DNA of 64,000 nt from Dehalococcoidia bacterium (GCA_965201135.1 OZ241751.1:86706-150705); one strand, 5' to 3'; positions 5,933-38,832 are shown, counted from the first letter of the stretch. Notes: generated from the letters alone by a model not told the origin. Made by a program: numbers and translations.

Positions 5933-6002
5933 GATGGGGCGCGGCGCGGAGAGCGAATGGCGGCGGGCGCGGAGAGAGGGGTAAGATTGCAACGGGGCGG
6001 CG

Positions 6003-6031
6003 TTGACAATATGCGCGGGCGCTGATAGAAA
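6003..6031 (+). promoter_or_regulatory. Putative sigma70-type promoter of surface-protein paralog 1
   Basis: TTGACA (6003..6008), 17 nt, TAGAAA (6026..6031), with TG one nt upstream of the -10. The identical arrangement and flanks recur at 15349..15377 upstream of paralog 3. Confidence 0.5.
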
Positions 6032-6186
6032 GGGGGTGCGCGCTAGACGCGGGGAGGCGAGGTTTGGCCGGAACTGCCCATCGCACCCTATTGCATAATG
6101 GGGCGGAGAGGTTGGACAATAGCGTCTCCTGCCGCGCCTTGCGCCCCGTGCATAGCGGGCAGGCGGTGTGATATAGTAGGGCGAGC

Positions 6187-6446
6187 GTGCGCCGAAACAG
6201 GGGCGCGGGCGCAGGATCAGAGGAACAGCGTCCGGGTAAGCCGGGCGCAAAGGACAACGAGACAGGCGCCGCGTCCAGGGTAAGCCGGGCGCGGAGGGAC
6301 AACGAGACAGGTGCCGCGTCCGGGGCAGCCGGGCGCGGAGGACAACGAGACAGGCGCCGCGTCCGGGGCAGCCGGGCGCGGAGGACAACGAGACAGGCGC
6401 CGCATCCGGGGCAGCCGGGCGCGGAGAACGGCGAGACAGACACCGG
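6187..6446. repeat. Tandem repeat of about 43 bp, 5-6 copies, each with a GC-rich hairpin
   Basis: Units start at 6230, 6273, 6318, 6361 and 6404, with a degenerate copy before 6230. The unit is GTCCGGGGCAGCCGGGCGCGGAGGACAACGAGACAGGCGCCGC, and CCGCGTCCGG..CCGGGCGCGG can pair. Confidence 0.85.
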
Positions 6447-6501
6447 CTCTCGGTGAGAGCGCCAAACCCATAGAGACTACGGCTCCACAAGGGGGGTAGA
6501 A

Positions 6502-9500
6502 GTGAGATTCACGAGGATTCCGCTCATAGCGACACTGCTGGCAGGGGCGCTCTCGCTGCTCGTCGTATTGCCCGCGATTGCCCAGAGCACGCTGGGCGAG
6601 GAGACCGACGGTCGGCTGAACGTGGCCGGCGCGTTAGAGGTTCAGGTCTACCAGAACATCGCGGACATCAGAGCGCGAGGCGTCGCCGCAGCGGACGCGG
6701 ACAGCTCCATCACGGAAGATGACGCGACTTCGCCTAACCCGGACGCTACGCCCCGCACCGCGGTGGAAGGCCCGACCACGACCACCATCGCCCGCGGCGA
6801 CCAGGCGCTGGGCCTGAGGGACAGCAGCGGCGACAACGCTTTCGACTACTCCCGCGTTCCCGACCCCCGGAACACCTACTTCAACCAGAATCTGTACGTC
6901 TCCAACGATGACGACGCGTACAACACGATTCTCATCACCGCTCAGGTCGCCGACTCCCGCGACAACAGCGCCTTGAGGAGACACGACGACGACCCTGACG
7001 GAGTGCCGGGGAACGACGACGACCACGTTGACGACCTGACCACGACGGAAGTGGACGAATCCAACGACGGGTGGGACGACCCCTTGACCGGCGCGGACTA
7101 TGACTGCGTCATTGCGGAGGCGAAGAACACGCGCTCCGGCAGAAAGGCGGAAGTGACGCTCCTCGCGGTGGGAGGCGCGGGCGACAGCGCCGTCCCTGCG
7201 AACTCCGCCGTCTACCAGGGCATTTTGACGGTCTGGGACCGGTCGACGGACCGGGTCGAGGAGCGCAATTCCCGTTGCGACAAGAGGCCGCTCGCCGACC
7301 CCGAGATCCAGCCTGACCCCGACAACCCTATCCCCTGGCGGACGGCCGGCGCCTCCGGCACCCAGCCTGCGGCGGTCGTCGCGGCGCGTGACGGAGACAC
7401 GATCGAGATCACGGTCGAAGGCATCCGGGGCCGGCTGCTGCTCACGGTTGACGGCGACGCCCCCACGGTGACCGGCCTGTCGCCGGAGGACGGCGGCACG
7501 ACGAACAGCGACCGCGTGACGCTCGGCCTCACGGTGAGCGACGACGGCGCCGGCCTGCGCTTCGACAGCGAGGACGGCTCCAGCGGGGACGGCGACTCCA
7601 GCCCCGCCAACGGCGACAACGACCAGAGGTTCAACGAGCCTCTGACCATCGCGGACAGCGACCCGGGCACGGCGGGATGGCAGGCGCCGTCCGGCGCAAC
7701 CTCGACGATCCAAGGCGCGACCGAGGACATTCAGATCTATTACGCGGACGACATCACGGACGGCACGATCGACGACCCCGCCGATGGCCAGGAGCACACG
7801 CTTGGGCATCAGCCGAACGTCCCCGCTCAGGAGTTCTCCGGCTACGGCACCAGCGGCTGGACGCAGGTCGACTTCGGGCGGTCGTACCGCCTCAGCATGG
7901 TCTTGAACAGCCAGGCGTTCGACTCGTATGAGTGGATGGTGGTCGCCCGGGACCGCGTGGGGAACTCCTTCACGACGGACGGCGACGACGACGAGAGCGG
8001 CCCGCAGCCGTTCACGTTCACCTTGGACGACGAGGACCCGACGGTCAACAACGTCCGGACGGGCGTGAAGTTCGACGCGAGCAGTTCCCCTCCGAAGGAG
8101 AAGGCGGACCGCTCGTGGCTTGCGCTGACGGTCGTGAACGAGGAGACCACGGGCACGGCGGACCGGGTTGACCGGTCGTCCGTCGAGGCTTCGGACTTCA
8201 CGGTGTCCGGCGCCACGGTGGTGGAGGCGGTCGTCCCGACGACCAAGAGGGTTTGCAAGACGCAGGACGAGGGCACGGAAGCGGACGAAACCGCGAAGAA
8301 CGTCCTCAACCTAGCCGGCGACTGCTTCTACCCGCGCGCGACGATCTACCTGCGGCTCTCCGAGGAGCTCGAGGCGGACGAGAAGCCGACGGTGCAGATG
8401 CTGGGTGGCGTGTTCAGAGACGTCGCGGGCAATCCGAACGAAGTGAAGCAACTGTCCGGGGCCAGCGTGGAGGACAAGATCGCCCCGCGCGTGTCCATCA
8501 CGGTCACGGCGAGCGGGGAGGCGACGAACCGCCCGGCGACGAACAGCAAGGGCGAGTTCACCATCCGCGTGACCTCCGACGAGGACTTGCGGCGATTCCC
8601 GACGGTCTACTTCGCGGAGATAGACGGGGTGGCCGACGCCGACGACGCAACCGTGGCCACGGGCCTGCAAGTGGACGCCGGCGTTCAGTCCATCACGCCC
8701 ACCGAGTTGGAGCGCAACGTTTGGGAGCGGAAAATCAAAGCCGACTCCGACGACCTTCCCGGCGCCGGTTCGCGGCTGATCGCGGTTCTCGTGGCCGCCG
8801 AGGACGAGGACCAGAACAGGGGCAACAGCGCCGGATGGACGCCGCATGCGACTCTGGGAACCGCGCCCGAAGGCACGAACTTGGACTTCAAGAAACTGGC
8901 GGACGGCGGCTACCTGATCGAGATTGACAACGCGCTGGCGGTCCCCGCCTCGGCGAACGTCACGGTGCAGCCGGCCGTCGAAGGCGAGTCGAAGGTCACG
9001 GAGAGCCTGACGCCCTACGTGGAGATCAAGTTCGAGGGAGAGAAGAACGAGTACGGCATCGCCGCCCGCGCTGGAGACGGACCCTTCTACAAGGCCGACG
9101 CCGGCGACGACGAGGACCCGATCAAGACGGACTCCCACGAGGGCGTAACGCTCACGAAACTGACCGTGGACGGCGAGGACCGCCTGGCCGACGTCCGGCG
9201 CGTGGGCTCCGAAAAGGGCCGGTTCATCCTGGCCTTCGTCGAGGGCTTGTCCCTCGGCAAGCACACGGTCGTCTACGCGGCGAAGGACGACGTCGGCAAC
9301 GAGTTCTCCGCGAACTCCGCCGGCGCGAAGGAGCGCAGTTTCTCCTTCACGGTTCGGGCGCGCGCCGGCTACAAAGTGAACATCCGGCCGGGCTGGAACC
9401 TGATCTCGCTGCCCGGCACGCCGACCAACCCCGCGGTTTCGGCGGTGCTGGAAGGCTTGCAGGCGAACACGGCCCTGTCCTACCAGAACGGCGAATGGCT

Positions 9501-9900
9501 GAGTGCCCTTCGCGGAGAAGACGGCGAGTGGCAGGGCACGCTCGAGCAGATCGCGGGCGGCTACGGCTACTGGATTCAGACCACCGCCGCCGAGACGATC
9601 ACCACGGTGATTCCGCCCACGCTGCCGAACCAGGTGCTGCCCACCGTGCCGATCACGTCGGGCTGGAACCTGGTGGGCGTGATTGACGCCGGGCAGAGGA
9701 GCGCAGGCACGACGCAAGACCCGGACAGGTACTTCGTCAACGTGAGTTGGCGGGTCGCCTACGGGTTCGACACGGCGGGCAGCCGCTGGACGAAGATCCT
9801 GCCGGCGCCTTCGACCGACGACAACCTCAACGACTCCGCCATCGCCAACGGCAAGGGCTACTGGCTCTGGAGCACGGAGCCCGGGACGCTGGTCCCGTAA
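6502..9900 (+). CDS. Giant secreted acidic surface protein, paralog 1 (S-layer-like; Ig-like repeats; conserved C-terminal domain)
   Basis: GTG start after AAGGGGGGTAGAA. Signal peptide MRFTRIPLIATLLAGALSLLVVLPAIAQ. SbsA-type Ig motifs are present (FRDVAGNPNE, ARDRVGNSF, AKDDVGNEF). The C-terminal blocks are PGWNLISLPG, YQNGEW, GGYGYWIQT, GWNLVGVID and NGKGYWLW..PGTLVP. Confidence 0.8.
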   Translation: MRFTRIPLIATLLAGALSLLVVLPAIAQSTLGEETDGRLNVAGALEVQVYQNIADIRARGVAAADADSSITEDDATSPNPDATPRTAVEGPTTTTIARGDQALGLRDSSGDNAFDYSRVPDPRNTYFNQNLYVSNDDDAYNTILITAQVADSRDNSALRRHDDDPDGVPGNDDDHVDDLTTTEVDESNDGWDDPLTGADYDCVIAEAKNTRSGRKAEVTLLAVGGAGDSAVPANSAVYQGILTVWDRSTDRVEERNSRCDKRPLADPEIQPDPDNPIPWRTAGASGTQPAAVVAARDGDTIEITVEGIRGRLLLTVDGDAPTVTGLSPEDGGTTNSDRVTLGLTVSDDGAGLRFDSEDGSSGDGDSSPANGDNDQRFNEPLTIADSDPGTAGWQAPSGATSTIQGATEDIQIYYADDITDGTIDDPADGQEHTLGHQPNVPAQEFSGYGTSGWTQVDFGRSYRLSMVLNSQAFDSYEWMVVARDRVGNSFTTDGDDDESGPQPFTFTLDDEDPTVNNVRTGVKFDASSSPPKEKADRSWLALTVVNEETTGTADRVDRSSVEASDFTVSGATVVEAVVPTTKRVCKTQDEGTEADETAKNVLNLAGDCFYPRATIYLRLSEELEADEKPTVQMLGGVFRDVAGNPNEVKQLSGASVEDKIAPRVSITVTASGEATNRPATNSKGEFTIRVTSDEDLRRFPTVYFAEIDGVADADDATVATGLQVDAGVQSITPTELERNVWERKIKADSDDLPGAGSRLIAVLVAAEDEDQNRGNSAGWTPHATLGTAPEGTNLDFKKLADGGYLIEIDNALAVPASANVTVQPAVEGESKVTESLTPYVEIKFEGEKNEYGIAARAGDGPFYKADAGDDEDPIKTDSHEGVTLTKLTVDGEDRLADVRRVGSEKGRFILAFVEGLSLGKHTVVYAAKDDVGNEFSANSAGAKERSFSFTVRARAGYKVNIRPGWNLISLPGTPTNPAVSAVLEGLQANTALSYQNGEWLSALRGEDGEWQGTLEQIAGGYGYWIQTTAAETITTVIPPTLPNQVLPTVPITSGWNLVGVIDAGQRSAGTTQDPDRYFVNVSWRVAYGFDTAGSRWTKILPAPSTDDNLNDSAIANGKGYWLWSTEPGTLVP

Positions 9901-9922
9901 GACCGGGGAACGAAAGAACGAC

Positions 9923-9949
9923 GCGCCCCCTCCCGCGCGGAGGGGGCGC
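9923..9949 (+). terminator. GC-rich hairpin after paralog 1 (no U-tract)
   Basis: GCGCCCCCTCC-CGCGC-GGAGGGGGCGC, 23 nt after the stop codon. Confidence 0.4.
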
Positions 9950-10038
9950 GGAAAGCGCAGAGAGACGCGCCAACTACCGGCTCTCAAACGCGAGAGCGCC
10001 AAAACTTAGAGCCTACAGCTCCATCAAGGGGGGTAGAA

Positions 10039-12945
10039 GTGAGATTCACGAAGGTTCCGCTGATAGCGACACTGGCGGCAGGGGCGCTCTCGCTGCTCGT
10101 CGTCTTGCCCGCGCTCGCGCAGAACGACACGCGAGGGCGGATCATCGACGGCAACAACTTCATGGTGGAGGTGTTCAAGACGCGCGCGGACGCCACGGAC
10201 TCGACCGACCCCGTGGCCGCCCCGTCGACGACGTACTTCAACGGCGTCCTCTACGCCTCGAACGCCAACGGCGTCGAACGCGACCCCGACGAGAACTCGG
10301 ACGCCGAAGCCGACCTCTCGGAGATCGCCAACCTGCTCAAGGTCACGGTCAACGTCGCCGAAGACGACCAAGAAGACTTGACCGACCCGGACGGCAACGA
10401 GGTTAAGTGCGTCGAAGTGATAGTGACGAACCGGCGGAGCGGACAGAAGAGCACGGCGCGCGCCCCGATCACGGACGACGGGTCCACCACCTTTTTGGAC
10501 GAGCGCTTTGCGCTGTTCGAGGTGATCCCCTACGGCCAGGAGAACAGGAACTCGGCCGGCTGCTGGTCGGCGGCCACCACCCCCGCTTCCGGCACCGTGG
10601 ACAAGGCGGTGGCGCAGATCACGGCGCGCGACGGCGACGTTCTGCGCGTTACGGCGACGGGAGCCATCGGCTCCGCCGACCTCACGGTCGACGGCGAGGG
10701 CCCCGTGTTCACCGAGATATCCCCCGCCCACAAGTCCTACAGCAGTTCCACCTCCTCCCGCTTCCAGTTCACCGTCACCGACAGCGGCTCCGGCCTCCGG
10801 CACGACGGCGAGTTCACGTATGGGGAAGGGGACCTTGACCCCGAGAACGAGGACAAGGACAGGGACGGCATCCGGGGCAACGAGCCGCTCTCGAGGGACC
10901 GCGACTCCGGCTCGCTGGGAGAAGCCGCGGACATTGCGTTGGAGTTGCCGGTCGGCGACGCCAACAACCAACTCAACTTGGGAACGAACCGCTGGCGCCG
11001 GATCGAGGTCGGCAGGTCGTACTCGATGGACGTGAGCCTCGCGTTGACGGAAGGCGCCAACGAGTGGAAGTTGGAGGCGACCGACCGCGTCGGAAACACC
11101 ACGGAGACCAGGGACCAGAACTCGGACGCGAGCGGCTACCAGGGCTACAGAATCACCGTGGACACCGGCAAGCCGGTCCTCTCCGACGCCCGGACGGGCA
11201 TCGCCTTCAGCGAAAGCAAGAAGAAGGAAGTGGTGGACCGCTCGTCCGTCGCCGTCACGCTTCAGGACGGGCAGGCGGGCGGCGACGAGAGTCTGAGCGC
11301 GGTCGACCACAACGACTTCCGCGTCGCCGGCCACGCGGTCACGGGCGCCAGCCTGATCAGCCTGTCCGCCGACTGCGACGACGACACCCCCACGCCGACC
11401 GACTTGGGCGGAACCTGCATCGAGAACCCGAAGGCGCGCGTCTACCTGCAACTGGCCGACGAACTCGAGCCGGACGAAACCCCCGAAGTGCAGATCCTCG
11501 GCGGAGCGGTCATCGACCTCGCCGGGAACTCCAACGACCCCGGCAAGTTCGTGTCGGCCGACAAGATCGCCCCGAGTCTGACCGTGACGATCAACCCCGG
11601 CTCGGAAGCCTCCGGCCGGCCGGCCATCCGCAAGACGGGCGAGGTCGCCATTCGCGTGGTTTCGGACGAGGACCTGCGCCGCCGCCCGTCGGTCTACTTC
11701 GCCACGATGAAGAACATCGCAACCAAGACTGCGGCGGACATCAGGATCGAACTCGCCCGCGCGGGCGGAAACATCACCGCGCAGACCGCCGCGAACACGT
11801 GGGAGCGCGTCTACCGCGCCAACGCGCAAGGACTCTCCGGAACGGACGGCCTCGTCGCGGTCGTCGTGTTCGGCCAAGACGACGCCGGCAACACCGGCTC
11901 CTCCGACGGCGTAACGCTCGGGTCGGACGGCGTCCCCACCGTCGACGACAAACTCAAACTCGACGACCTCGTCGCGGGCGCCCTCCTCATCGAGGTGGAC
12001 GACAACCTCCCGAACCCGACCTTCGCGCTCTCCCCCTACCTCGACAGCGACAACCAGACCAAGACGGAGAGTTCGCGCCCGTTCATCACGATAGAGTTTG
12101 CGGAAGCGAACGAAGCCGTCTACGACGTGGGCGCCACGGACGCCGACTCGGACGAGAACGTCACGAAGGTTCGCCTCTCCGACGACGACGACGACATTGA
12201 GTTGGACTCCCACAAGGGCGTCCGGATCACGTCGGTGACGCTGGACGGCGAGAACGTCTCGGACGACCTCTCCGCGATCAGTTCCCGCAAGTACACCCTG
12301 GCCACCAGCGGACTCTCCGTCGGCAGGCACACGCTGCGCGTGACGGCCGCGGACGACGCGGGGAACGTCAACGCGAAGAAGGACTTCAACTTCGACGTGC
12401 AGGCGCGGCGCCCCTACGAGTTGAAACTCACGCCGGGCTGGAACCTCGTCTCGCTGCCCGGCACGCCGACGGACTCGACCGTCGGCGCCGTGACCAGCGG
12501 CGTCCCGCAGGCCAAGATCGTGCTGTCCTACCAAAACGACGCGTGGACCACCGCGGTCCGCGTCGAGGACGGCGGCTGGCAGGGCACGCTCACCGACATC
12601 GTCGGCGGCTACGGCTACTGGATCCAGACCACCGCCTTCGAGACGCTCAGGACCTCCATCCCGGAGACGGACACATCCTCGGTGCTCCCGACGGCGCAAG
12701 TCTCGACGGGCTGGAACCTGCTCGGCGTCGTGGACGTCGAACAGGCCAAGGCCGGAAACGCCCCGAACGGCGGCGGCGACGCCGACGACTACTTCTCCAA
12801 CATCCGCTGGAGCGTCGCCTACTCCTACGACACCCGCCAGAACGACTGGACGCGCATCCTGCCGAGCGGCGCCAACAGCGACGCCATCTCGAACGGCAAG
12901 GGCTACTGGGTCTGGGCCACCGCCCCCGGCACGCTCGTCCCGTAA
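10039..12945 (+). CDS. Giant secreted acidic surface protein, paralog 2
   Basis: Same RBS, GTG start and signal peptide (MRFTKVPLIATLAAGALSLLVVLPALAQ). Motifs TDSGSGLRHDGEF, ATDRVGNTT, VIDLAGNSND and AADDAGNVN. The C-terminal domain (PGWNLVSLPG .. GGYGYWIQT .. GWNLLGVVD .. NGKGYWVW..PGTLVP) matches paralogs 1 and 3. Confidence 0.8.
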   Translation: MRFTKVPLIATLAAGALSLLVVLPALAQNDTRGRIIDGNNFMVEVFKTRADATDSTDPVAAPSTTYFNGVLYASNANGVERDPDENSDAEADLSEIANLLKVTVNVAEDDQEDLTDPDGNEVKCVEVIVTNRRSGQKSTARAPITDDGSTTFLDERFALFEVIPYGQENRNSAGCWSAATTPASGTVDKAVAQITARDGDVLRVTATGAIGSADLTVDGEGPVFTEISPAHKSYSSSTSSRFQFTVTDSGSGLRHDGEFTYGEGDLDPENEDKDRDGIRGNEPLSRDRDSGSLGEAADIALELPVGDANNQLNLGTNRWRRIEVGRSYSMDVSLALTEGANEWKLEATDRVGNTTETRDQNSDASGYQGYRITVDTGKPVLSDARTGIAFSESKKKEVVDRSSVAVTLQDGQAGGDESLSAVDHNDFRVAGHAVTGASLISLSADCDDDTPTPTDLGGTCIENPKARVYLQLADELEPDETPEVQILGGAVIDLAGNSNDPGKFVSADKIAPSLTVTINPGSEASGRPAIRKTGEVAIRVVSDEDLRRRPSVYFATMKNIATKTAADIRIELARAGGNITAQTAANTWERVYRANAQGLSGTDGLVAVVVFGQDDAGNTGSSDGVTLGSDGVPTVDDKLKLDDLVAGALLIEVDDNLPNPTFALSPYLDSDNQTKTESSRPFITIEFAEANEAVYDVGATDADSDENVTKVRLSDDDDDIELDSHKGVRITSVTLDGENVSDDLSAISSRKYTLATSGLSVGRHTLRVTAADDAGNVNAKKDFNFDVQARRPYELKLTPGWNLVSLPGTPTDSTVGAVTSGVPQAKIVLSYQNDAWTTAVRVEDGGWQGTLTDIVGGYGYWIQTTAFETLRTSIPETDTSSVLPTAQVSTGWNLLGVVDVEQAKAGNAPNGGGDADDYFSNIRWSVAYSYDTRQNDWTRILPSGANSDAISNGKGYWVWATAPGTLVP

Positions 12946-13016
12946 GCTCCGCGCAGCCTCCCCGCGCAGCCCCCAACGCGGGACTGCCGCAGCCCTCGAC
13001 GGACTGCGAAAAGGAA

Positions 13017-13040
13017 GCCCCCGCCGACATCGGCGGGGGC
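13017..13040 (+). terminator. Rho-independent-type terminator after paralog 2
   Basis: GCCCCCGCCG-ACAT-CGGCGGGGGC followed by TTTCCCTTT. An identical hairpin follows paralog 3. Confidence 0.65.
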
Positions 13041-13075
13041 TTTCCCTTTGAGGCGCGGCGAGCGCGCCCCATACA

Positions 13076-13198
13076 GGCGCGCAAGCGCCGAATCCCCCCT
13101 CTCCCTATAAGGGGAGAGGACGCCGCGAACGCGGCGGGAGAGGGTACTGGGAGCGCCTCGCCCACCATGGCCGTCATTCCCGCGTAGGCAGGAATCCC
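13076..13198. repeat. Repeat mosaic R3-R2-R1, left flank of darTG
   Basis: GGCGCGCAAGCGCC lies at 13076..13089. R2 (CCCCTCTCCCTATAAGGGGAGAGGACGCCGCGAACGCGGCGGGAGAGGGTACTG) lies at about 13095..13149. R1 lies at 13173..13198. Confidence 0.85.
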
Positions 13199-13232
13199 GC
13201 CCCTGATAACCTAGAACCAGAGAGGAGACGCT

Positions 13233-13874
13233 ATGCCCGTTCCGGCCAACCCGAAGATCTACCACATCGTTCACATAGACCGGCTGCCGTCCATCATCGC
13301 GGACGGCTTCTTGTGGAGCGATGCCGAGGCGACCCGGCGCGGCGCGCCCGGCACGACGATTGGCATGGACAAAATCAAGCGGCGGCGCCTGAACGAATTG
13401 CAGTTGGAGAGCCACGCAGGGTTGCACGTGGGCGAATGCGCCCCGTTCTACTTCTGTCCGCGCTCCGTGATGCTCCACCGAATCCATATGGGGAACGACT
13501 CTGAACTGGCCTACCAAGGCGGGCAGGGCCCAATCGTTCATCTGCAGGCCGACCTTCGCCAAGCCGTTGCTTGGGCGGACTCAAAGGGTCGCCGATGGGC
13601 GTTCACAGCCTCCAGTGCCGCCTCCTATCGCTTTAAGGATTACTGCGATTTGTCTCAATTGGACAAGGTTGACTGGAACGTGGTGGGGGCTCGCTTCTGG
13701 CAAGGCTTCCGCGATGCGAAGCAAGCGGAATTCTTGATGGAGCGTTCCTTCCCGTGGGAACTTGTCGAGTTCATCGGCGTCCTCTCGCCGGAGATCCGTG
13801 ATAGAGTGCGGGCGGCGATGCTAGGAGCGGGACATCAGCCCGTTGCGGCGATAATGCCGGGCTGGTACTACTAA
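13233..13874 (+). CDS. darT: DarT toxin (DUF4433 family; ssDNA thymidine ADP-ribosyltransferase)
   Basis: 213 aa with IYHIVHIDRLPSI, APFYFCPRSVMLH, AKQAEFLMERSFPWELV (catalytic Glu context) and C-terminal PGWYY. SD GAGAGGAG lies upstream. Confidence 0.85.
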   Translation: MPVPANPKIYHIVHIDRLPSIIADGFLWSDAEATRRGAPGTTIGMDKIKRRRLNELQLESHAGLHVGECAPFYFCPRSVMLHRIHMGNDSELAYQGGQGPIVHLQADLRQAVAWADSKGRRWAFTASSAASYRFKDYCDLSQLDKVDWNVVGARFWQGFRDAKQAEFLMERSFPWELVEFIGVLSPEIRDRVRAAMLGAGHQPVAAIMPGWYY

Positions 13875-13889
13875 GGAGAGGCTGCGCCG

Positions 13890-14945
13890 ATGATCGAATA
13901 CAAGACAGGCGACATCACGGGCGAGGACGCCGAGGCGCTCGTCAACACGGTCAACTGCGTCGGCGCGATGGGCAGAGGCGTCGCCTTGAGATTCAAGGAA
14001 GCCTTTCCCGACAACGCGCGGGCGTATGCGCGGGCTTGCGAACGCAAGGAGGTCGAGCCCGGGCGCATGTTCGTCTTCGAGACGAAGTCGCTCGCCAACC
14101 CGCGCTACATCATCAACTTCCCCACCAAACGCCACTGGCGCGGCAAGAGCCGTATGGAGGACATCGAGTCCGGCCTCGCGGCGCTCGCCGAAGAAGCGCG
14201 AAGCCGGGAGATACGCTCCCTCGCCCTTCCGCCGCTCGGCAGCGGGCTCGGCGGACTGGACTGGCGCGAAGTGCGCCCCCGCATCGAGAAAACCCTCGCC
14301 GCGATGGAGGGCGTCAGAGCCGTCGTCTACGAGCCGAACGGACAGGAGCAGCCGTTCGCTCCCAGAGCCCAAGCGCCGGCGATGACGCTAGGCCGCGCCG
14401 CAGTCGTCGCGCTGATCGACCGCTACCTCGCCGGCCTGCTCGATCCGTTCGTGACGCTGCTGGAGATCCACAAACTGATGTACTTTATGCAAGAGGCGGG
14501 CGAGCCGCTGAAACTGAACTTCCAACCGGATCGCTATGGCCCCTACGCCGGCAACCTGCGCCACCTCCTGAAAGCGATTGAAGGCCATCTCACATCGGGC
14601 TACGCCGGCCGCGACGCGCCGGACGAGACCATCGACCTCGTGCCCGGCGCAGTCGCGGACGCCAACGCCTTCCTAGAAGAGCGCCCAGAGACCTGCGTGC
14701 GGTTCGCCCGCGTGAGCGACCTCGTCGACGGCTTTGAGTCGCCGTTGGGCTTGGAACTCCTCGCGACGACGCACTGGGTCGCCTCGCGCTCCGCCCCGAG
14801 GCCCGCGTCGACCGAAGAGATCATTGCCGGCGTCTACGCTTGGGGCGAGCGCAAGCGGCAGTTCTCCGAGAGAGAAATCCGCATCGCCTTGGAGTTTCTC
14901 GAAAAGAAAGGCTGGCTTCCCTCCCCCGCCTCGCCCTCCCCGTGA
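13890..14945 (+). CDS. darG: DarG antitoxin (N-terminal macrodomain + C-terminal DarT-binding domain)
   Basis: 351 aa with GDITGEDAEALVNTVNCVGAMGRGVALRFKEAFP, INFPTKRHWRGKS and LPPLGSGLGGLDW. It lies immediately downstream of darT, with SD AAGGAGAG. Confidence 0.85.
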   Translation: MIEYKTGDITGEDAEALVNTVNCVGAMGRGVALRFKEAFPDNARAYARACERKEVEPGRMFVFETKSLANPRYIINFPTKRHWRGKSRMEDIESGLAALAEEARSREIRSLALPPLGSGLGGLDWREVRPRIEKTLAAMEGVRAVVYEPNGQEQPFAPRAQAPAMTLGRAAVVALIDRYLAGLLDPFVTLLEIHKLMYFMQEAGEPLKLNFQPDRYGPYAGNLRHLLKAIEGHLTSGYAGRDAPDETIDLVPGAVADANAFLEERPETCVRFARVSDLVDGFESPLGLELLATTHWVASRSAPRPASTEEIIAGVYAWGERKRQFSEREIRIALEFLEKKGWLPSPASPSP

Positions 14946-14947
14946 CC

Positions 14948-15105
14948 GTCATTCCCGCGTAGGCGGGAATCCCGCCCCCATTGAGTCGCCCGCCCAATTG
15001 GAGGCGCGCAAGCGCCCAGATCCCCCTCTCCCTATAAGGGGAGAGGACGCCGCGAACGCGGCGGGAGAGGGTACTGCGGTCGGGGCGCAACGCGCCCCGT
15101 CTCCA
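14948..15105. repeat. Repeat mosaic R1-R3-R2-R4, right flank of darTG
   Basis: R1 at 14948..14973, R3 at 15003..15016, R2 at 15022..15077 and an R4-like hairpin at 15081..15099. Confidence 0.85.
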
Positions 15106-15123
15106 TGTATCCCCCGGGGCCTC

Positions 15124-15273
15124 GTCATTCCCGCGAAAGCGGGAACCTACCCATCCCCCGCCCTCCCCGCCCGCCCCCATGACCGTCATTCCCGCGAAAG
15201 CGGGAACCTACCCATCCCCCGCCCTCCCCGCCCGCCCCCATGACCGTCATTCCCGCGAAAGCGGGAACCTACC
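15124..15273. repeat. Tandem repeat, 61-bp period, about 2.5 copies, each containing an R1 hairpin
   Basis: GACCGTCATTCCCGCGAAAGCGGGAACCTACCCATCCCCCGCCCTCCCCGCCCGCCCCCAT repeats, with R1 units at 15124, 15185 and 15246. Confidence 0.85.
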
Positions 15274-15348
15274 CCCAAGCGCCGCGCCCGCCGATAGCGT
15301 AGAATCTCCCCCGCGCCCCAGCCGCGCGAGGTTGCAGGGCGCAAGGCG

Positions 15349-15377
15349 TTGACACGGACGCCAATTGCTGATAGAAA
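15349..15377 (+). promoter_or_regulatory. Putative sigma70-type promoter of surface-protein paralog 3
   Basis: TTGACA-17 nt-TAGAAA with TG one nt upstream of the -10. It is followed by about 100 nt conserved with the paralog 1 leader (GGTTTGGCCGGAACTGCCCATCGCACCCTATTGCATAATG..GACAATAGCGTCTCCTGCCGCG). Confidence 0.5.
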
Positions 15378-15587
15378 GGGGTTGCGCGTTTGCGCGGGAG
15401 GGCGCGGTTTGGCCGGAACTGCCCATCGCACCCTATTGCATAATGCGGGCGTTAGGTTAGACAATAGCGTCTCCTGCCGCGTTCGGCGTCCGCCCAACGC
15501 GCGCGCAAGTTGGAGAAACACGAAGGAACCTTGCTCCCCAGGCGGGAGCGCGCAGCCTAGAACCACAGCTCCGTAAGGGGGGTAGAA

Positions 15588-18500
15588 GTGAGATTCACGA
15601 AGATTCCGCTCATAGCGACACTGCTGGCAGGGGCGCTCTCGCTGCTCTTCCTGTTGCCCGCGTTCGGCCAAACCTCCGGCGAGATCGAACGAACGGAAGG
15701 CAGGGTGACCTCAGGCGACCTCCAAGTCGGCGTCTACGAGAACCTCGCGGACGCCAAGGTGGCGAAACTGGTGGAGGACACCTATCCCCCCTCCGCCAGC
15801 AAGGGCGACGCTGGCAGCAGAACGTTCTACCGCCCCCCCACCACAGCCACTGAGGCCACGGGAGGGCTTTCGGGCGTCAACGTCGGCAGTGAGATTGTCT
15901 CAGGTCTGGTCGCCGGCGCGATGAGGACCGCGGACCCCGCTTACGGGATCAGCCCGTACACCGCCACGCGCAACACCTTCTTCGACTCGTCGCTCTACAT
16001 CGGCGGCGGGAAGACCGGCAGTTACAACACGGCGCTCATCACGCTCCGCACCGACCTGGTCGCCGACGCTTGCGACGCCGGCACGGACGACCCCGATACT
16101 GCAGTAGACGAGTCCACGCTTCCCGATGCCGCCGCGGACTACCCGGTCGCCAAGGTCACCAACCCCAGCCGCGGCTACGACATTGACGTTCCGCTGGCTC
16201 CCGCCGCCTTCCCGGAGGACTCCACCCCGTTTATTTCAGGCCAGACCGGATACGGAACCTCGCCCACCGAGACCTACGTTCAGGCGTTCTTCAATGTCGT
16301 GGACGACACGGACGACTCCTTGTCCCGCGCGGACAAGATGGTGGACGGCCCCAACTGCTTCTACTACGCGAGGGCGAACGGGAGCATGGAGTTCGGCCAG
16401 ATCGGGGCGCGCCACGGCGACCGCCTGACTGTCCGCATCACCGGCCAGGCCAGCAACATCAGCCTCATCGTCGACGCCGAAGGCCCCGAGATCAACCTGA
16501 TTAGCCCGGTCGACACGAGCGTCGTCAAGTCGAGCAACCTCTCCTTCCGCTTCGACGTCCGCGACCCCGACTCCGGCCTCCGCCACGACGGCGAGTACAC
16601 GCTGAGCAACGACGGCGACCCCACCTCCGTCAACCCCGACCGCGACGCCAACCGCGGCTCCGAGCCCCGCTCCGAGTCGGCGCCTAGCCTCTTCGGCGTC
16701 GGCAACGGCAAAGCCGCCGACATCCAAGCCGTCTACTGGAGCATCGAGAACACCCAAACCTCCGACGTCAGCGACCGCCTCACCGACTCCGTCCGCGACA
16801 CCCAAGCGGGCGGCATCGACATCACCGACCAGGGCAGGTGGGCCATCATCGGCGGTCGCGCCGGAGTCGGCTACTCCTTCTCGGCGACGGGCAACAACTT
16901 CGACTCCGCCAAGAACGCGCTGCAGTTCACCGCGACGGACCGCGTCGGGAATATGACCACCTCGGACGCGGACCTGGAGCGGACCGGGAACCAGCCCTAC
17001 ATCTTCGAAGTGGACGACAATAAGCCCACCATCGAAAACATCGACGTTCGCACGGGCATCTCCTACGACAACTCCGACAGCGAGGAGGAGGTGAACCGCT
17101 CCGCCATCGCCCTCAAGTTCAGCGAGCCGATCAAGTCCGGCGACATCGCGGTCAGCCGCATCACGGTCGCGGGCAACAGCGTCACGGGCGTCATTCAGCC
17201 TAACGGCGCGCCGATCGTCTACCGCGCGCAGTCGGGCGACGCGGATCCCGCCGACTGCACGCTCGACGAGCGCGTGTCGCAAGACCACGACGACAATCCT
17301 GACACCCCCAACGTCATGGTCGCCAACCCGAACAAGTGCCCCGGCACGGACATTCAGGACGAGAAGATCGCCGACACGCGCAGCCTCGTGTTCCTGCAGT
17401 TGGAGGACGCCCTCGAGGCGGACGAGGATCCTGCGGTGACGCTGCTTTCCGGCGCCGTCCAAGACCTCGCCGGCAACTCCGTGAACACCACCTCGCTGGA
17501 GTCGGAAGACTGGATCGCGCCCACGCTCACGGTCTCCGTGACCGGAACCAAGGGCGACCGCCCGGTCGCCAACGATGACGGCGCGTTCGTGATCGCAGTG
17601 ACTTCGGACGAAGACCTGAGCGGGCGCCCCCGCGTGGTGTTCGCGGAGATCAGGGCGACGGCCAACGCCGCCGATGCCGACAACCCATACTCGTACTCCG
17701 TCGGGCCCGACATCTCCAACGAAAGAGACTGCAACCTCACGCCAGATGAGACCGACCGCTCTTGGAGCCGCTCCTGCGGAGTGGGCGAGCAGATCGTGGA
17801 CGGCATAACCGGAATGGTCGGCGTGTTCGTTTTGGCGAAGGACGAGGACGACAACCTCGCCGTCGTGCCCACGCGGTGGACCCCCCAAGGCGATCCGCCC
17901 CCGAACACCCCCGGCCACCGCGCGGCGGGCTCGCCGCCGAAGCCGATTGATGGCAACGCGGTTGACGTCCAGGAACTCCAGGACGCCGGCCTGCTGATAG
18001 AGATCGACAACATCTTCAACTCGGACGGCGAAGACGCGCCCGCGCAGCAAGACCCGACCGAGAGCGTCACGCCGCAGAGCGGCGACGACGCGAAGAAGAC
18101 GGAGAGCCCCAACCCGTTCATCCACATCGACTTCGAGGGCGAGGCGTCCGAATACGACCGAGGGGACTTCAAGGACTCCCACGGCACGGTGACGATCACC
18201 GAGATCAAGTTGGGCGACGACGACGCGACGGACCGCCTGAGCCGCGTGGACAGGGACGAGTTCTCCATAGTGCTCCGCGACCTCGCGGTCGGCAAGTACA
18301 CGCTGACCTACAAGGCCGAGGACGACGCGGGGAACGAGTACAACAACGGCGAGTTCAAGTTCGAGGTGCTCGCGCGCAAGCCCTACAAGGTGAACGTCAA
18401 GCCGGGCTGGAACCTGATCTCGCTGCCGGGCGCTCCCGAAAACTCCGGCATCGCGGACGTGCTCTCCAGCACAGAATTCCTCACCCCCGTGCTCGCCTAC

Positions 18501-18965
18501 CAGAACGGCGACTGGCTGACGGCCCGCCGAACGGACGACGGCTGGGACGGAAGCCTGACGGACATCGAGGCCGGCTACGGCTACTGGGTGCACGCCCAGA
18601 CCTTCGAGACGATCTCGACGCTCCTGACGGAGATCGACCCGGCGTCCGTCCCGCCGACGGTGCCGGTCACCCGAGGCTGGAACCTGCTCGGCGTCATAGA
18701 CGTCGACCAAAGCAGCGCCGGCAGTGCGCCCGGAACCGGCGACAACGCCGACGAAGCCGACAACTACTTCGGCAGCATCCCGTGGAAGGTCGCCTACTCC
18801 TACAACACGCAGATGAGCACCTGGCAGCGGTACACCCCGAAGACGGAGATCGGCTGCGTGACGTCCGGCACAGGCGAGGACGCGGTGGAGACCTGCGCCG
18901 CGGAAATCCTGAACGGCCAGGGCTACTGGGTCTGGTCCGAGCGGCCCAGCACGCTCGTCCCGTAA
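15588..18965 (+). CDS. Giant secreted acidic surface protein, paralog 3
   Basis: Same RBS and GTG start. Signal peptide MRFTKIPLIATLLAGALSLLFLLPAFGQ. Motifs RDPDSGLRHDGEY, ATDRVGNMT, VQDLAGNSVN and AEDDAGNEY. The C-terminal domain is PGWNLISLPG .. AGYGYWVHA .. GWNLLGVID .. NGQGYWVW..PSTLVP. Confidence 0.8.
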   Translation: MRFTKIPLIATLLAGALSLLFLLPAFGQTSGEIERTEGRVTSGDLQVGVYENLADAKVAKLVEDTYPPSASKGDAGSRTFYRPPTTATEATGGLSGVNVGSEIVSGLVAGAMRTADPAYGISPYTATRNTFFDSSLYIGGGKTGSYNTALITLRTDLVADACDAGTDDPDTAVDESTLPDAAADYPVAKVTNPSRGYDIDVPLAPAAFPEDSTPFISGQTGYGTSPTETYVQAFFNVVDDTDDSLSRADKMVDGPNCFYYARANGSMEFGQIGARHGDRLTVRITGQASNISLIVDAEGPEINLISPVDTSVVKSSNLSFRFDVRDPDSGLRHDGEYTLSNDGDPTSVNPDRDANRGSEPRSESAPSLFGVGNGKAADIQAVYWSIENTQTSDVSDRLTDSVRDTQAGGIDITDQGRWAIIGGRAGVGYSFSATGNNFDSAKNALQFTATDRVGNMTTSDADLERTGNQPYIFEVDDNKPTIENIDVRTGISYDNSDSEEEVNRSAIALKFSEPIKSGDIAVSRITVAGNSVTGVIQPNGAPIVYRAQSGDADPADCTLDERVSQDHDDNPDTPNVMVANPNKCPGTDIQDEKIADTRSLVFLQLEDALEADEDPAVTLLSGAVQDLAGNSVNTTSLESEDWIAPTLTVSVTGTKGDRPVANDDGAFVIAVTSDEDLSGRPRVVFAEIRATANAADADNPYSYSVGPDISNERDCNLTPDETDRSWSRSCGVGEQIVDGITGMVGVFVLAKDEDDNLAVVPTRWTPQGDPPPNTPGHRAAGSPPKPIDGNAVDVQELQDAGLLIEIDNIFNSDGEDAPAQQDPTESVTPQSGDDAKKTESPNPFIHIDFEGEASEYDRGDFKDSHGTVTITEIKLGDDDATDRLSRVDRDEFSIVLRDLAVGKYTLTYKAEDDAGNEYNNGEFKFEVLARKPYKVNVKPGWNLISLPGAPENSGIADVLSSTEFLTPVLAYQNGDWLTARRTDDGWDGSLTDIEAGYGYWVHAQTFETISTLLTEIDPASVPPTVPVTRGWNLLGVIDVDQSSAGSAPGTGDNADEADNYFGSIPWKVAYSYNTQMSTWQRYTPKTEIGCVTSGTGEDAVETCAAEILNGQGYWVWSERPSTLVP

Positions 18966-19409: not shown

Positions 19410-21485
19410 GTGCGTAGAGCCGTCAGCGGGCGCGGCCCGGCCTCGAGGGCGCCCCGAACGCAATCTCCGTCCGCCGCGCCCTCGACTGCGGACGCGGGCC
19501 TGCTGTGGGGCGTTCGCGCCGCCCTCCTCGCCGTTCTCTTCATCCCCCTCCTCGTAACCACGAACAGCATGTTTCCCTACGTCGTGGGGAAGGCGCTGTT
19601 CGCCCGCGCCGCCATCGAGGTCGCGTTCGCGCTCTGGCTCATTCTGCTGATCCGCAATCCCGCCTATCGCCCCGCGAAGTCGTGGGTCGTCATTGCGTTC
19701 GCGGGATGGCTGCTCGTCTCGCTTGCGGCGTCGTTCACGGGCGTCAGCGTCACGCGCAGCCTCTGGTCGAGTTACGAGCGAATGCAGGGCGTCGTGGACT
19801 TGGCGCACTGGTTCGCGTTCGCGCTCGCGGCGGCGTCGGCGTTCCGAACGATCGCGGACTGGCGGCTGCTCTTCACGGTCAACGCGGGCGTGTGCAGCGT
19901 CGCGTCTGCGGTGGGGCTCGCGAGGTACTACGGGCTCACGGACTGGGCGCTGGCGACGGTGCGCGAGGGGCGGATCGAGTCGCTGCTCGGCAACGCGACG
20001 TTCTTGGGCGCGTACACCGTCGTGAGTCTGCTGCTCGCGCTGGGGATGCTTCTGCAGTCCGTGGGGCGCGGGCGGACGGCCTCCGCGCCGCAGGATGCGG
20101 GCAACAGAGAGTCGCGCCGGGCACGGCGAGCGCGCAACAGGGCGGCGGACGCCGGAGTCGGATTCGACGCGGAGCCGTGGCTGCGGGCGCTATGGGGGAT
20201 GTCGGCGGCGCTCTCGTTCTGGGCGATGTGGTTCACCGGATCGCGGGGCGCGATGGCGGGGCTTATGGCGGGCGCGGCGGTCTTCGTCGTCGGCTACGCG
20301 CTCTGGGGAGCGTCGCGCCGCGCGAGGCGCGTAATCCTGGCCGGAGGCGCGGCGGCGCTGGCGGCGGGCGGACTGGCGGCGGGCGTATTGCTCACGAGCG
20401 GCGTTCCGTCGTTCCTGCAACCGGCGCTGGACGCGACCCCGACGCTGCAGCGGCTCGCGTCGTTCAGCACGCGGGAGACGAGCATCCTGGGGCGAATTGA
20501 GGCGTTCGAGACGGCGTCGGACGCTTTCCTGGCGCGGCCGCTGCTGGGCTGGGGCCCCGAGAACTATCTCGTCGCGTGGGGTTTGCACTCCACGTTTGAC
20601 GAGGCGATTGAGATCTATGATCAAGCGCACAACAAGGCGCTGGAGGCGCTCGTCACGACGGGCGGCGTCGGGCTGTTGGCGCACCTAGCGCTGTGGGGGG
20701 CGATGGGGTGGGCGCTGCTGCGCGCCGCGCGGCGCGGAGAGGGCGGCGACCGCATGCTCGCGCTAGGGGTCGCCGGCGCCGCCGCCGCCTACTTCACGCA
20801 GAATATGTTTCTCTTCGACAGCCCGGTCACCGTGATGTTGTTCGCTATGCTCGCGGCGTTCGCGGCGTGGGAGGAGGGGCAGGCGCGCGCGGCGCGGGGA
20901 GATCCGCGTCTGGCGGAGCGCGGGGGCGGCGTCGCGCCGTTGGGGGCCGCCGGACGCTTGCTGAGCGCGTCCGCAGGGCGAACGCTGCTCATCGGCCTCG
21001 TCGTCGCGCTGACGGCGTTTCTCGCGCTCTTCTCCGCGTTCCGGCCCTACGCGGCGGCGGCGGACACGGCCAGCGCCGACTTTGCGGACTCGTGGAGCGA
21101 GTCCGAGGCGTACTTCGAGCGCGCCATCGCGGGGTTTCCGCCGCTCGCCAACTATCCCCGCGTCTATATGACGCGCCGCGCGACGTCGAGCATCGAAACG
21201 CTCACGGACGCCGAGTACGCCCGCGTCGTCGACCTCGTGACGTCGGAGGGGGAGCGGGCGCTCGAGTTGGAGCCGCGGAATTGGTGGATTCACGCGAACT
21301 TGGCGCAGTTCCATCAGGCTGCCTCGCTGCGGGACGCTCGGCGCCTCGCCTCGGCGCGGACGCACGTCGACGAGTTGCTCCGCCTCGCTCCGCAGACGAA
21401 CTTCGCCGCCGACGTCGCGGCTCAGCAGGAGCGTATGGAGGAGGCGCTTGCGCGTCAGTTGGGCGCGCCGGGGGCCGGGGGCTAG
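19410..21485 (+). CDS. O-antigen ligase (Wzy_C)-family polytopic membrane protein with C-terminal TPR-like soluble domain
   Basis: Multiple TM segments. FTGSRGAMAGLMAG and YDQAHNKALEALVTTGGVGLL are typical of the O-antigen ligase/WaaL family. The start is set at GTG 19410, 9 nt after GGGAGGG; the track ORF starts at TTG 19392. Confidence 0.7.
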   Translation: MRRAVSGRGPASRAPRTQSPSAAPSTADAGLLWGVRAALLAVLFIPLLVTTNSMFPYVVGKALFARAAIEVAFALWLILLIRNPAYRPAKSWVVIAFAGWLLVSLAASFTGVSVTRSLWSSYERMQGVVDLAHWFAFALAAASAFRTIADWRLLFTVNAGVCSVASAVGLARYYGLTDWALATVREGRIESLLGNATFLGAYTVVSLLLALGMLLQSVGRGRTASAPQDAGNRESRRARRARNRAADAGVGFDAEPWLRALWGMSAALSFWAMWFTGSRGAMAGLMAGAAVFVVGYALWGASRRARRVILAGGAAALAAGGLAAGVLLTSGVPSFLQPALDATPTLQRLASFSTRETSILGRIEAFETASDAFLARPLLGWGPENYLVAWGLHSTFDEAIEIYDQAHNKALEALVTTGGVGLLAHLALWGAMGWALLRAARRGEGGDRMLALGVAGAAAAYFTQNMFLFDSPVTVMLFAMLAAFAAWEEGQARAARGDPRLAERGGGVAPLGAAGRLLSASAGRTLLIGLVVALTAFLALFSAFRPYAAAADTASADFADSWSESEAYFERAIAGFPPLANYPRVYMTRRATSSIETLTDAEYARVVDLVTSEGERALELEPRNWWIHANLAQFHQAASLRDARRLASARTHVDELLRLAPQTNFAADVAAQQERMEEALARQLGAPGAGG

Positions 21486-37913: not shown

Positions 37914-38140
37914 GTCATTCCCGCGTAGGCGGGAATCTCGTATCCACCTCTCTCCAGAGAGGCCGTCGCATAATCTACCGTCATTCCGGCGTAGGCCGGA
38001 ATCCAGAGGCGCGCAAGCGCCGTATTCACCTCTCCCTATAAGGGGAGAGGACGCCGCGTAAGCGGCGGGAGAGGGTACTGGGAACGGCAGCCGAGAGGTT
38101 GCGCAAGGTCTCCCATCGGAGGCAGTTGCATAACCTGCAG
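37914..38140. repeat. Repeat mosaic (R1, CCTCTC/GAGAGG hairpin, R1 variant, R3, R2, degenerate IS5-TIR-like pieces, R1)
   Basis: R1 at 37914..37938, R1 variant + R3 + R2 at 37980..38080, GTTGCGCAAGGTCTCC and GCAGTTGCATAACC at about 38098..38135, then an R1 beginning at 38139. Confidence 0.8.
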
Positions 38141-38237
38141 TCATTCCCGCGTAGGCGGGAACCTCGCCCCCATCGGACGGGGGCGCGTCGCGCCCCGTCC
38201 CCACTACTCCCATCGCCTCCCGCGCGACGCGCCCCGG

Positions 38238-38266
38238 TTGACGGCGCGGCGCCTAATGGTTAGCCT
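38238..38266 (+). promoter_or_regulatory. Possible promoter of brnTA (would give a near-leaderless mRNA)
   Basis: TTGACG-17 nt-TAGCCT ends 6 nt before the brnT ATG at 38273. No SD was seen. Confidence 0.3.
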
Positions 38267-38272
38267 AGCCCT

Positions 38273-38533
38273 ATGCCTTACGAGTGGGACGAGGCCAAGC
38301 GGCGCGGCAACATCGCCAAGCACGGCATAGACTTCTCTGCGATCGAGCGCTTCCAATGGAGCGCCGCGCTCATCGAGCCGGACGACCGGCATAGCGAACC
38401 GCGATTCCGCGCGTTCGGCTACATAGAACTCCGTTTGCACACGGTCGTGTACACTGAACGCATGGGGAACACCCGGATCATCAGCATCCGCAAATCCAAC
38501 GCGAAGGAGATGGAACGCTATGCCGCCCCTTAA
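38273..38533 (+). CDS. brnT: BrnT-family (DUF497) type II toxin
   Basis: 86 aa with YEWDEAKRRGNIAKHGIDF..DDRHSEPRFRAFG..RLHTVVYTER..RIISIRKSNAKE. Confidence 0.8.
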   Translation: MPYEWDEAKRRGNIAKHGIDFSAIERFQWSAALIEPDDRHSEPRFRAFGYIELRLHTVVYTERMGNTRIISIRKSNAKEMERYAAP

Positions 38534-38825: not shown

Positions 38826-38832
38826 TGCCTTC

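Follow-up and report, generated by a model that had tools for sequence, protein, structure and literature searches.

Within a 64,000-nucleotide stretch of DNA from a Dehalococcoidia bacterium (GCA_965201135.1, OZ241751.1:86706-150705; 67% GC; hereafter the window, whose positions serve as coordinates throughout), a darT-darG toxin-antitoxin gene pair is located between the second and third of three genes, par1, par2 and par3, that encode paralogous, apparently secreted proteins. We consider it likely that the pair forms a functional module of the DarTG2 type, that it is a derived insertion between par2 and par3, that its alleles have been exchanged within this slot, and that the hairpin repeats on either side of it resemble repetitive extragenic palindromic (REP) elements and are not the ends of a mobile element. 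Open reading frame (ORF) calling placed par1, par2, darT, darG and par3 all on the + strand, with 138 bp between par1 and par2 and 2,642 bp between par2 and par3, in agreement with the original prediction, made from the sequence of the window, of a 2.6-kb gap set against one of about 140 bp. The nearest relatives of the window are metagenome-assembled Dehalococcoidia labelled SAR202 or Chloroflexota; in comparisons with other genomes, which carry L numbers, the window sequence is referred to as W.

The toxin gene, darT (13233-13874, + strand), encodes a protein of 213 amino acids that is predicted, from its family matches and its alignment to Thermus DarT (7OMV), to be an ADP-ribosyltransferase acting on single-stranded DNA (ssDNA). 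It matched Pfam DarT (DUF4433, PF14487) with an E value of 1.3e-56, residues 10-213 lying on positions 1-201 of the 201-position profile, as well as the PADLOC DarT profile (E 1.6e-60) and the NCBIfam equivalog toxin_DarT (217.8 bits, cut-off 150). In the alignment to 7OMV (E 4.4e-26), KQAEFL of the query lies opposite KQAAFL of the chain, so the catalytic Glu is kept, and the equivalent of Arg51 is kept too, RRR of the query standing opposite E-R51-R52. We take the crystallised 7OMV protein to be the E160A mutant, the catalytic Glu being Thermus E160. The antitoxin gene, darG (13890-14945, + strand), encodes a predicted macrodomain ADP-ribosylglycohydrolase of 351 amino acids with a C-terminal DarT-binding domain. 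It matched Pfam Macro (E 2.3e-25), PADLOC DarG (E 3.1e-128) and the NCBIfam equivalog antitoxin_DarG (431.9 bits, cut-off 250), the last over positions 1-336 of 338. DarG can be aligned over its first 150 residues with the macrodomain of Thermus DarG (5M31, E 4e-51); the catalytic Lys (the equivalent of Thermus K80) is kept in PTKRHW, NFPTKRHWR standing opposite NFPTKKHWR, while residues 165-335 match the C-terminal domain of Mycobacterium tuberculosis DarG that was co-crystallised with DarT (7YK3_B, E 1.6e-24). The canonical pair that had been proposed, a darT with the motif AKQAEFL and a macrodomain darG, was thus recovered, with AKQAEFL present and both equivalog cut-offs exceeded. An exact-sequence look-up of the W DarG returned no record.

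DarTG2 systems are those in which the macrodomain antitoxin carries a second, toxin-binding domain; their toxin ADP-ribosylates thymidine in ssDNA, and DarTG2 has been found experimentally to defend E. coli against phages (PMC11825919). The combination of macrodomain and C-terminal toxin-binding domain in DarG places the W cassette in the DarTG2 type, for which every feature that can be read from sequence was found, and the module is probably complete and functional. On one strand, darT ends at 13874 and darG begins at 13890, leaving 15 bp between them, and each gene is preceded by a Shine-Dalgarno sequence (GGAGAGG between darT and darG), suggesting that the two are co-transcribed as one operon. 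The cassette adds a well-supported DarTG2 module for an uncultured, peptidoglycan-less Dehalococcoidia lineage and is as such a new example of a known system. Foreign origin could not be argued from composition, in which the signal is weak: the comparison of GC and codon usage over 13233-14945 that had been proposed found darT slightly atypical, with a third-position GC content (GC3) of 0.76 (z -0.9) that lies below 33 of 39 genes, and darG unremarkable, its GC3 of 0.84 (z 0.0) being in the normal range.

Comparison with other genomes suggests that the cassette was inserted between par2 and par3. A par2 scan of 185,579 reference genomes yielded 42 loci, at none of which does DarT or DarG occur within 10 kb of the par homologue. 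The order par1 … par2-par3 is kept, with par2 and par3 adjacent, in six distant genomes whose par2 is 42-43% identical to that of W (L004, L007, L010, L011, L013 and L023). In the five of these read at sequence level (all except L011) the par2-par3 gap is 132-190 bp long and contains only a terminator hairpin and a paralog leader, an architecture shared with the par1-par2 junction of W itself. The close relatives with a readable slot all have it filled: DarTG is present in L046 and L079, whose par proteins share 95-99% identity with those of W, and in L043/L044 and L061, which form a second species group (par2 62-64% identical), and darG is present alone in L048, which belongs to the clade of W. 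(Left out of this set were P0001, with a 94% identical DarG on a 2.9-kb contig, and several contigs with a 94-97% identical par2.) Compact junctions in distant genomes together with a filled slot in all close relatives indicate, on this sequence evidence, that the gap is a derived, lineage-specific insertion common to two related clades, and that it is old or at least not recent. The insertion that the original prediction had read into the gap therefore holds relative to the compact junctions of 132-190 bp, but not as a recent or sporadic event, since all informative close relatives carry DarTG or darG; the comparison of orthologous loci proposed with it gave a divided answer, the cassette being always present inside the clade and absent from the slot outside it.

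Other Dehalococcoidia hold DarTG at other sites. L013, one of the genomes with a compact junction, carries a DarTG (68% identical) between luciferase-like and isochorismatase genes, and the same position is occupied in L050 and L051 (71%). OZ251500.1 (par2 67-70%) and L081 have only par1-par2, followed by amt-glnB, and in OZ251500.1, which represents a sister lineage, DarTG (81%) is found ~22 kb from par1-par2 in an island of type IIG restriction-modification, PaREP1 and phospholipase D (PLD)-helicase genes. The cassette of L062 has a comparable toxin-antitoxin-rich context; the L047 and L062 copies both lie in defence or toxin-antitoxin islands. A trace of the insertion may also be visible upstream of par3, where a promoter-like block (15346-15481, + strand) duplicates, over 135 nt and at 89% identity, the one that precedes par1 (6000-6135). 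Both contain TTGACA and TGCATAAT motifs and are presumably promoters; the duplication from par1 is seen in the W clade, and a par1-type promoter block of its own at par3 fits the insertion having uncoupled par3 from par2. Searches for a donor mobile element gave only remote matches, the best for W DarG among viral contigs being 64% (range 57-64%) and those of the cassette to known plasmids and phages by blastn being at most 69% identical.

The cassette has diverged far more than the genes on either side of it. Between W and L046 (a 420-kb contig), identity is 95-100% over par1, par2, par3, Wzy and ClpC and falls, with sharp borders, to 67-94% between ~13065 and ~15275, an interval made up of the repeats and darTG. 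High identity of W to conspecific genomes stops just 3' of the par2 terminator (~13064) and returns just 3' of a set of 61-nt tandem repeat units (~15275-15300). Synonymous divergence (dS) of par2 and par3 between W and L046 or L048 is 0.028-0.034, as against 0.345 for darT and 0.29 for darG between W and L046 and 0.24 for darG between W and L048. The ratio of nonsynonymous to synonymous divergence (dN/dS) of darT and darG is 0.27-0.47, which implies that both are still under constraint. Across species the relation is reversed. Between W and L043, par2 has a dS of 0.57 and darG a dS of 0.15, with DarG 92% identical as protein and 92-97% as nucleotide sequence over 13888-14787, and between L046 and L061 par2 is 62% identical, yet DarG is 99% and DarT 92% identical; altogether, genomes of another species (par2 ~63% identical) hold darG alleles 92-99% identical to W-clade alleles. 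The near-identical segment of L046 and L061 starts inside par2, ~55 bp short of its stop codon, and takes in the terminator, darT and darG and the repeats on either side of them, with 98-100% identity over the ~150 bp at its onset. Low dS in the flanks against high dS in the cassette, combined with darG alleles common to different species, indicates that divergent darTG alleles have been swapped among strains and related species by homologous recombination, the slot being kept. A 90.4% BLAST high-scoring segment pair over ClpC had prompted us to consider the par genes as the anomalous part, brought in by a recent sweep over a diverged background; global alignment, in which ClpC and Wzy are 95-99% identical and only darTG and the 5' part of a DUF6798 gene have diverged, led us to reject this.

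One strain has lost the toxin. In L048, repeat units stand in place of W 13196-13795, and the remnant of darT, ~25 codons (L048 9780-10000), begins at the equivalent of 13799, right after an R1 repeat unit. Its darG is intact and 85% identical, with a dN/dS of 0.35, and thus represents a chromosomal orphan antitoxin. With synonymous divergence about tenfold that of the flanks, alleles common to different species and the toxin lost in one strain, the cassette offers a clean natural case of a chromosomal slot that stays fixed while the defence-gene alleles in it turn over; such turnover is the population genetics expected of defence genes and not a new mechanism.

The original prediction described repeat mosaics, termed R3-R2 and R1, on both flanks of the cassette, with the R3-R2 blocks of about 75 bp in direct orientation. 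These were found: the 75-nt block at 13075-13149 is 95% identical to that at 15002-15076, and R1 at 13165-13203, which contains GTCATTCCCGCGTAGGCAGGAA, is 92% identical to R1 at 14940-14978, all of them direct and listed on the + strand. Three further R1-containing units of 61 nt follow in tandem at 15123-15305. Folding gave three hairpins for the 75-nt block (z -4.5 for the left copy) and one for R1, the z values of the repeat hairpins ranging from -2.1 to -4.5. What the prediction had taken for brackets are nevertheless not defined ends, although R1 does adjoin the cargo on both sides. R1 (GTCATTCCCGCGnAnGCGGGAA) has 39 matches in the window where 0.01 are expected, the hairpin CTCTCCC-TATAA-GGGAGAG has 8 and the unit GACGCCGCGAACGCGGCGGGAGAGGGTAC has 9, with none expected for either, and their copies are spread over the 64 kb and occur in most of its long intergenic regions, which means that the repeats are not tied to the darTG cassette. 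By inspection the copies lie between gene-like ORFs, one exception being the copy that holds the darG stop codon. Here the TGA of darG falls inside CxTGACCGTCATTCC in W, L046, L048, L079 and L061, and the frame of L043 continues to a TAG in the R1 loop. The arrays beside darTG vary in number and order among the near-identical W, L046 and L048, the families thin out in more distant genomes, and an Rfam scan of the whole window reported only a tRNA and no family for the repeats. Neither element-specific ends, nor the same ends at every copy, nor a target-site duplication was found for the cassette. Judged by their sequence and distribution, the repeats are genome-wide, REP-like families of intergenic hairpins and not cassette-specific ends. 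They probably act as recombination substrates, an R1 unit being present at the junction of the darT deletion in L048, and possibly as terminator or stabiliser hairpins. For annotation, it follows that the conspicuous repeat 'brackets', being intergenic elements that occur throughout these genomes, should not be taken as mobile-element ends. Elsewhere in the window, seven R1-containing units of ~40 nt each form a tandem array at 2229-2484, and a second long tandem array, in the repeat-rich stretch upstream of par1 (6137-6470), gives rise to many overlapping spurious ORFs.

Several features of these flanks would nonetheless suit a discrete mobile element, ended by R1 or by the 75-nt block plus R1, that was moved by a REP-associated or insertion sequence (IS)-type transposase and inserted by transposition. 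R1 stands immediately before the conserved darT leader, and flush with the cargo on both sides and in direct orientation, in four of five slot-resident cassettes (in L043 downstream only); of the seven full 75-nt copies in the window, the two beside the cassette are closest to each other, at 95% as against 81-92% for the other pairs; the block of similarity between W and L043/L044, 13076-15076, coincides exactly with the outer edges of both 75-nt copies; and an IS5-like transposase is encoded 7.5 kb upstream. We regard transposition as quite improbable, however, given the same repeats in most long intergenic regions and their varying number and order between near-identical strains. The cassettes of L047 and L062 moreover differ, with the upstream R1 inverted, no 75-nt unit and an extra PaREP1 gene; the segment common to L046 and L061 does not stop at the repeats but includes the par2 terminator and the last part of the par2 coding sequence; a cassette with the same flanks was never seen at a second site; the repeats, direct in orientation, are mirrored in order, with no target-site duplication evident; and they match neither Rfam nor any known family. 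Equally at odds with the derived insertion that we favour would be an ancestral DarTG between par2 and par3, cleanly lost in other lineages. The lack of an empty site in any close relative found and the wide distribution of DarTG in Dehalococcoidia are what such a history would predict, but several species have in common a single compact junction (132-190 bp long in the five genomes read at sequence level) that resembles the par1-par2 junction of W and bears neither repeat scars nor darTG remnants. The compact-junction lineages hold their DarTG at another conserved site, and the copy of the par1 promoter block at par3 is as expected if an insertion had uncoupled par3 from par2, so that we consider ancestral presence highly improbable.

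The function of the module and the reality of the exchange are likewise open to other accounts. DarTG could be a chromosomal addiction or stabilisation module that guards the paralog array from recombinational loss and has no role in phage defence. The ends of the flanking paralogs share stretches of ~110-150 nt that are 86-89% identical, making deletions by recombination plausible, the cassette is kept in the slot in all close relatives, and there are no neighbouring defence genes. On the other hand, L048 has kept par3 and darG without darT, from which the toxin appears dispensable for maintenance of the array; fluctuating selection on defence genes would be expected to produce deep allelic divergence and sharing across species, as seen here; the sister lineage holds the same cassette family in a restriction-modification/helicase defence island; and DarTG2 is experimentally anti-phage in other bacteria (PMC11825919). 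We judge this account unlikely. The apparent allele exchange could also be spurious, the product of chimeric joins made at repeats or conserved gene ends during metagenome assembly, given that L043, L044, L061 and L079 are short-read scaffolds, that contig ends frequently fall at these repeats (L077 stops 182 bp past par2) and that L046 and L061 are 98-100% identical over the ~150 bp where their similarity starts. The within-species contrast of W with L046 and L048, by comparison, comes from two long contigs (420 kb and 2.96 Mb); L043, L044 and L045 are three independent assemblies with identical darTG and the par2/par3 of the same species; and none of the key alleles has an exact match among the others recovered, the DarT of L061 being 92% identical to that of L046 and 96% to that of L079 and hence not copied from a co-assembled strain. 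Such an artefact seems to us very improbable.

In the account that we favour, a probably functional DarTG2 module subject to allele exchange, DarT would ADP-ribosylate thymidines of single-stranded DNA and so block replication, the DarG macrodomain would reverse the modification and the C-terminal domain of DarG would bind DarT. The most likely role of the module, judged from characterised DarTG2 systems, is phage defence of the abortive-infection type. The module would have been inserted into a compact par2-par3 junction of ~130-190 bp in an ancestor of this Dehalococcoidia lineage and have stayed there since, par3 acquiring the promoter block of par1 as a duplicate. Turnover of the cassette in its slot would come from the exchange of divergent darTG alleles by homologous recombination, with the common hairpin repeats, the 3' end of par2 and the 5' region of par3 (both conserved) as plausible substrates. 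The toxin gene can be deleted while darG survives, and repeats would accumulate and rearrange in the long intergenic regions.

A number of observations weigh against parts of this account. The defence role in this organism is deduced from homology alone, and PADLOC gave no matches in the immediate neighbours (the par genes, Wzy_C, DUF6798 and the IS5 transposase), so that there is no defence island, the nearest candidate defence system, PDC-S11, lying ~24 kb off at 38978-40267. This absence fits a plain chromosomal toxin-antitoxin module equally well. A promoter and terminator scan found no credible consensus promoter upstream of darT; the same scan overlooked the par2 hairpin, whose loop is too short for the scan rule. 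No empty par2-par3 site was seen among the informative close relatives (L046, L048, L079, L043/L044 and L061), and without one inside the clade the direction of change, one gain as opposed to multiple losses, rests on outgroup parsimony; a scan of JGI metagenomes with par2 brought up only distant relatives, at most 52% identical, and no conspecific empty site. The recombination breakpoints are placed only to within or beside repeat arrays or conserved gene ends, and chimeric joins at repeats or conserved gene ends are conceivable in L043, L044, L061 and L079, all of them scaffolds assembled from short metagenome reads.

The proteins that border the slot are true paralogs, 38-43% identical to one another, with a signal peptide and a conserved C-terminal domain in common. 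Their family, with 142 homologues at E ≤ 1e-10 among 5.8 billion proteins, all of them hypothetical, is confined to this Dehalococcoidia group. Sequence searches of par2 against PDB, Pfam and NCBIfam returned nothing significant and only weak Big_13 matches. An AlphaFold (AF2) model of par2 built from 61 sequences, with a predicted local distance difference test (pLDDT) score of 79, is an all-beta chain of beta-sandwich domains behind a signal peptide, and Foldseek matched it, always with low template modelling (TM) scores, to generic multi-Ig extracellular proteins including the S-layer proteins Sap and SbsC and the adhesins SiiE and PrgB. For SAR202-type Chloroflexi, which are devoid of peptidoglycan genes, the presence of an S-layer has been proposed (10.1101/328013). 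It is a reasonable inference that the par proteins are secreted surface proteins, possibly of an S-layer. Within species, the dN/dS of the par genes is unusually high, at 0.31-0.86, the highest value being that of par3 against L046 (at a dS of ~0.03), which suggests diversifying or relaxed selection.

These properties make it tempting to speculate about a linked receptor-variation and defence locus, as the original prediction had done. In its fullest form, par2-par3 would be a dedicated, lineage-specific immunity slot within the main surface (phage-receptor) genes, in which DarTG alleles or a toxin-less darG are shuffled between strains and species through conserved paralog ends and REP-like hairpins, receptor and defence variants are inherited and exchanged as a linked unit, and the R1 hairpin at the darG stop tunes expression of the antitoxin. 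The secreted multi-Ig appearance of the par proteins and their high within-species dN/dS speak for such a link; against it, only adjacency joins the par genes to DarTG, and the DarTG of the sister lineage is found in an ordinary defence island. We give this extended scenario little chance of being right. If the linkage were functional it would bear on the co-evolution of receptor variation and intracellular immunity; what the data show is co-location.

The remaining features of the locus, all on the + strand, frame the cassette as follows. The ORF of par1 (6502-9900) encodes a secreted multi-Ig-like protein of 1132 amino acids that is 43% identical to par2 and shares its signal peptide and C-terminal domain; par2 (10039-12945; 968 amino acids) forms the left border of the slot and par3 (15588-18965; 1125 amino acids), aligned to the other paralogs, the right. 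Downstream of par2 lies a hairpin terminator at 13015-13051, GCCCCCGCCGA-CA-TCGGCGGGGGC followed by TTTCCCTTT, with a folding energy of -34.3 kcal/mol (z -4.0) and a sequence unchanged in L046 and L048. The leader of darT (13204-13232) contains TGATAACCTAGAAC and, ahead of the ATG, the Shine-Dalgarno sequence GAGGAG; W, L046, L079, L043 and L061 share it in conserved form, and the copies in the defence islands of L047 and L062 do not. All paralogs, those of distant genomes included, have in common a leader of ~70 nt with a GCTCTCG/CGAGAGC hairpin and AAGGGGGGTAGAAGTG at the GTG start. In W these leaders occupy 6420-6501, 9901-10038 and 15500-15587, the last, with its hairpin and AAGGGGGGTAGAAGTG, having been delimited by alignment of the three leaders with the empty-site junction of L013.

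Beyond the slot, the par1-par2-darTG-par3 module is at least 95% identical at the protein level across W, L046, L048, L077 and L079, and its outer neighbours differ: downstream are Wzy_C, DUF6798 and ClpC in W and L046, abhydrolase and major facilitator superfamily (MFS) genes in L048 and a Mg-chelatase/ComM-like gene in L079, and upstream is CTP synthase in L077. Either rearrangement at repeat-rich borders or movement of the whole module could account for this. In W, the DUF6798 membrane-protein gene (21482-23410, - strand; GC 0.595) lies beside the O-antigen-ligase-like Wzy_C gene. Its N-terminal part (22366-23241) has 55-66% nucleotide identity to L046 between flanks of 95-99%, with the protein 71% identical, and is a second hypervariable island, in an envelope locus. 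Just upstream of par1, at 4629-5663, is the IS5-type DDE transposase gene (DDE_Tnp_1 and DUF772); a 61% identical homologue lies between two par paralogs in L020 (13545-14549), suggesting that inter-paralog gaps repeatedly take up mobile genes. The par1-par2 gap of L004, L007, L009, L010, L011, L013, L023 and L030 holds a conserved terminase large subunit-like gene (for instance L009 7977-9539; phrog_2 E 8e-36, no Pfam match) that is often interrupted by repeat-encoded insertions and is accompanied in some distant-clade genomes by GIY-YIG, DUF559 and IS110 genes. Further along the window, the PADLOC candidate PDC-S11 (E 5.8e-79) is a low-GC gene (GC 0.58; DUF4268 and DUF5679) at 38978-40267 that overlaps the start of a Cas4-like PD-(D/E)XK nuclease gene (40260-40925) and has R1 and 75-nt repeat copies just upstream (37914-38890). 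A low-GC cluster on the - strand (42249-45200; GC 0.54-0.58, GC3 0.51-0.59) encodes PD40/WD40-like beta-propeller proteins, adjoins a tRNA gene (45512-45585) and repeat copies (45076-45380), and looks like an acquired island.

Compared with the DarTG2 systems of Thermus aquaticus, M. tuberculosis and E. coli, the W cassette has the same order of darT then darG, the same domains and the same catalytic residues. It differs in its host, an uncultured member of the Dehalococcoidia, in its position between surface-protein paralogs and not in a defence island or mobile element, and in that a flanking repeat provides darG with its stop codon and the ~9 codons before it. The orphan darG of L048 recalls orphan DarG-like antitoxins in having been kept intact after deletion of darT; it is chromosomal and in a relative of W, whereas the orphan antitoxins of PMC11825919 are phage-borne. 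The repeats, like REP palindromes, bacterial interspersed mosaic elements (BIMEs) and clusters of the REP doublet-forming hairpin (REPIN) kind, are short, GC-rich, intergenic hairpins of high copy number that vary between strains and occur singly, in tandem or in mosaics with other units, but the families are unrelated to enterobacterial REPs, have no Rfam match and include one unit that overlaps a stop codon. No accompanying RAYT (Y1) transposase came to light in the 64 kb, though no systematic search was aimed at one. The slot resembles the core defence hotspots of Pseudomonas aeruginosa (PMC10250203) and horizontal gene transfer hotspots (PMC5635113) in being fixed between conserved genes and in having a content that diverges much faster than its flanks and is exchanged by recombination through them. 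Unlike those hotspots, it was seen to hold one type of system only, either DarTG alleles or darG alone, with no alternative systems or empty sites found among close relatives, and is in this respect an allele-swapping locus rather than a multi-system hotspot.

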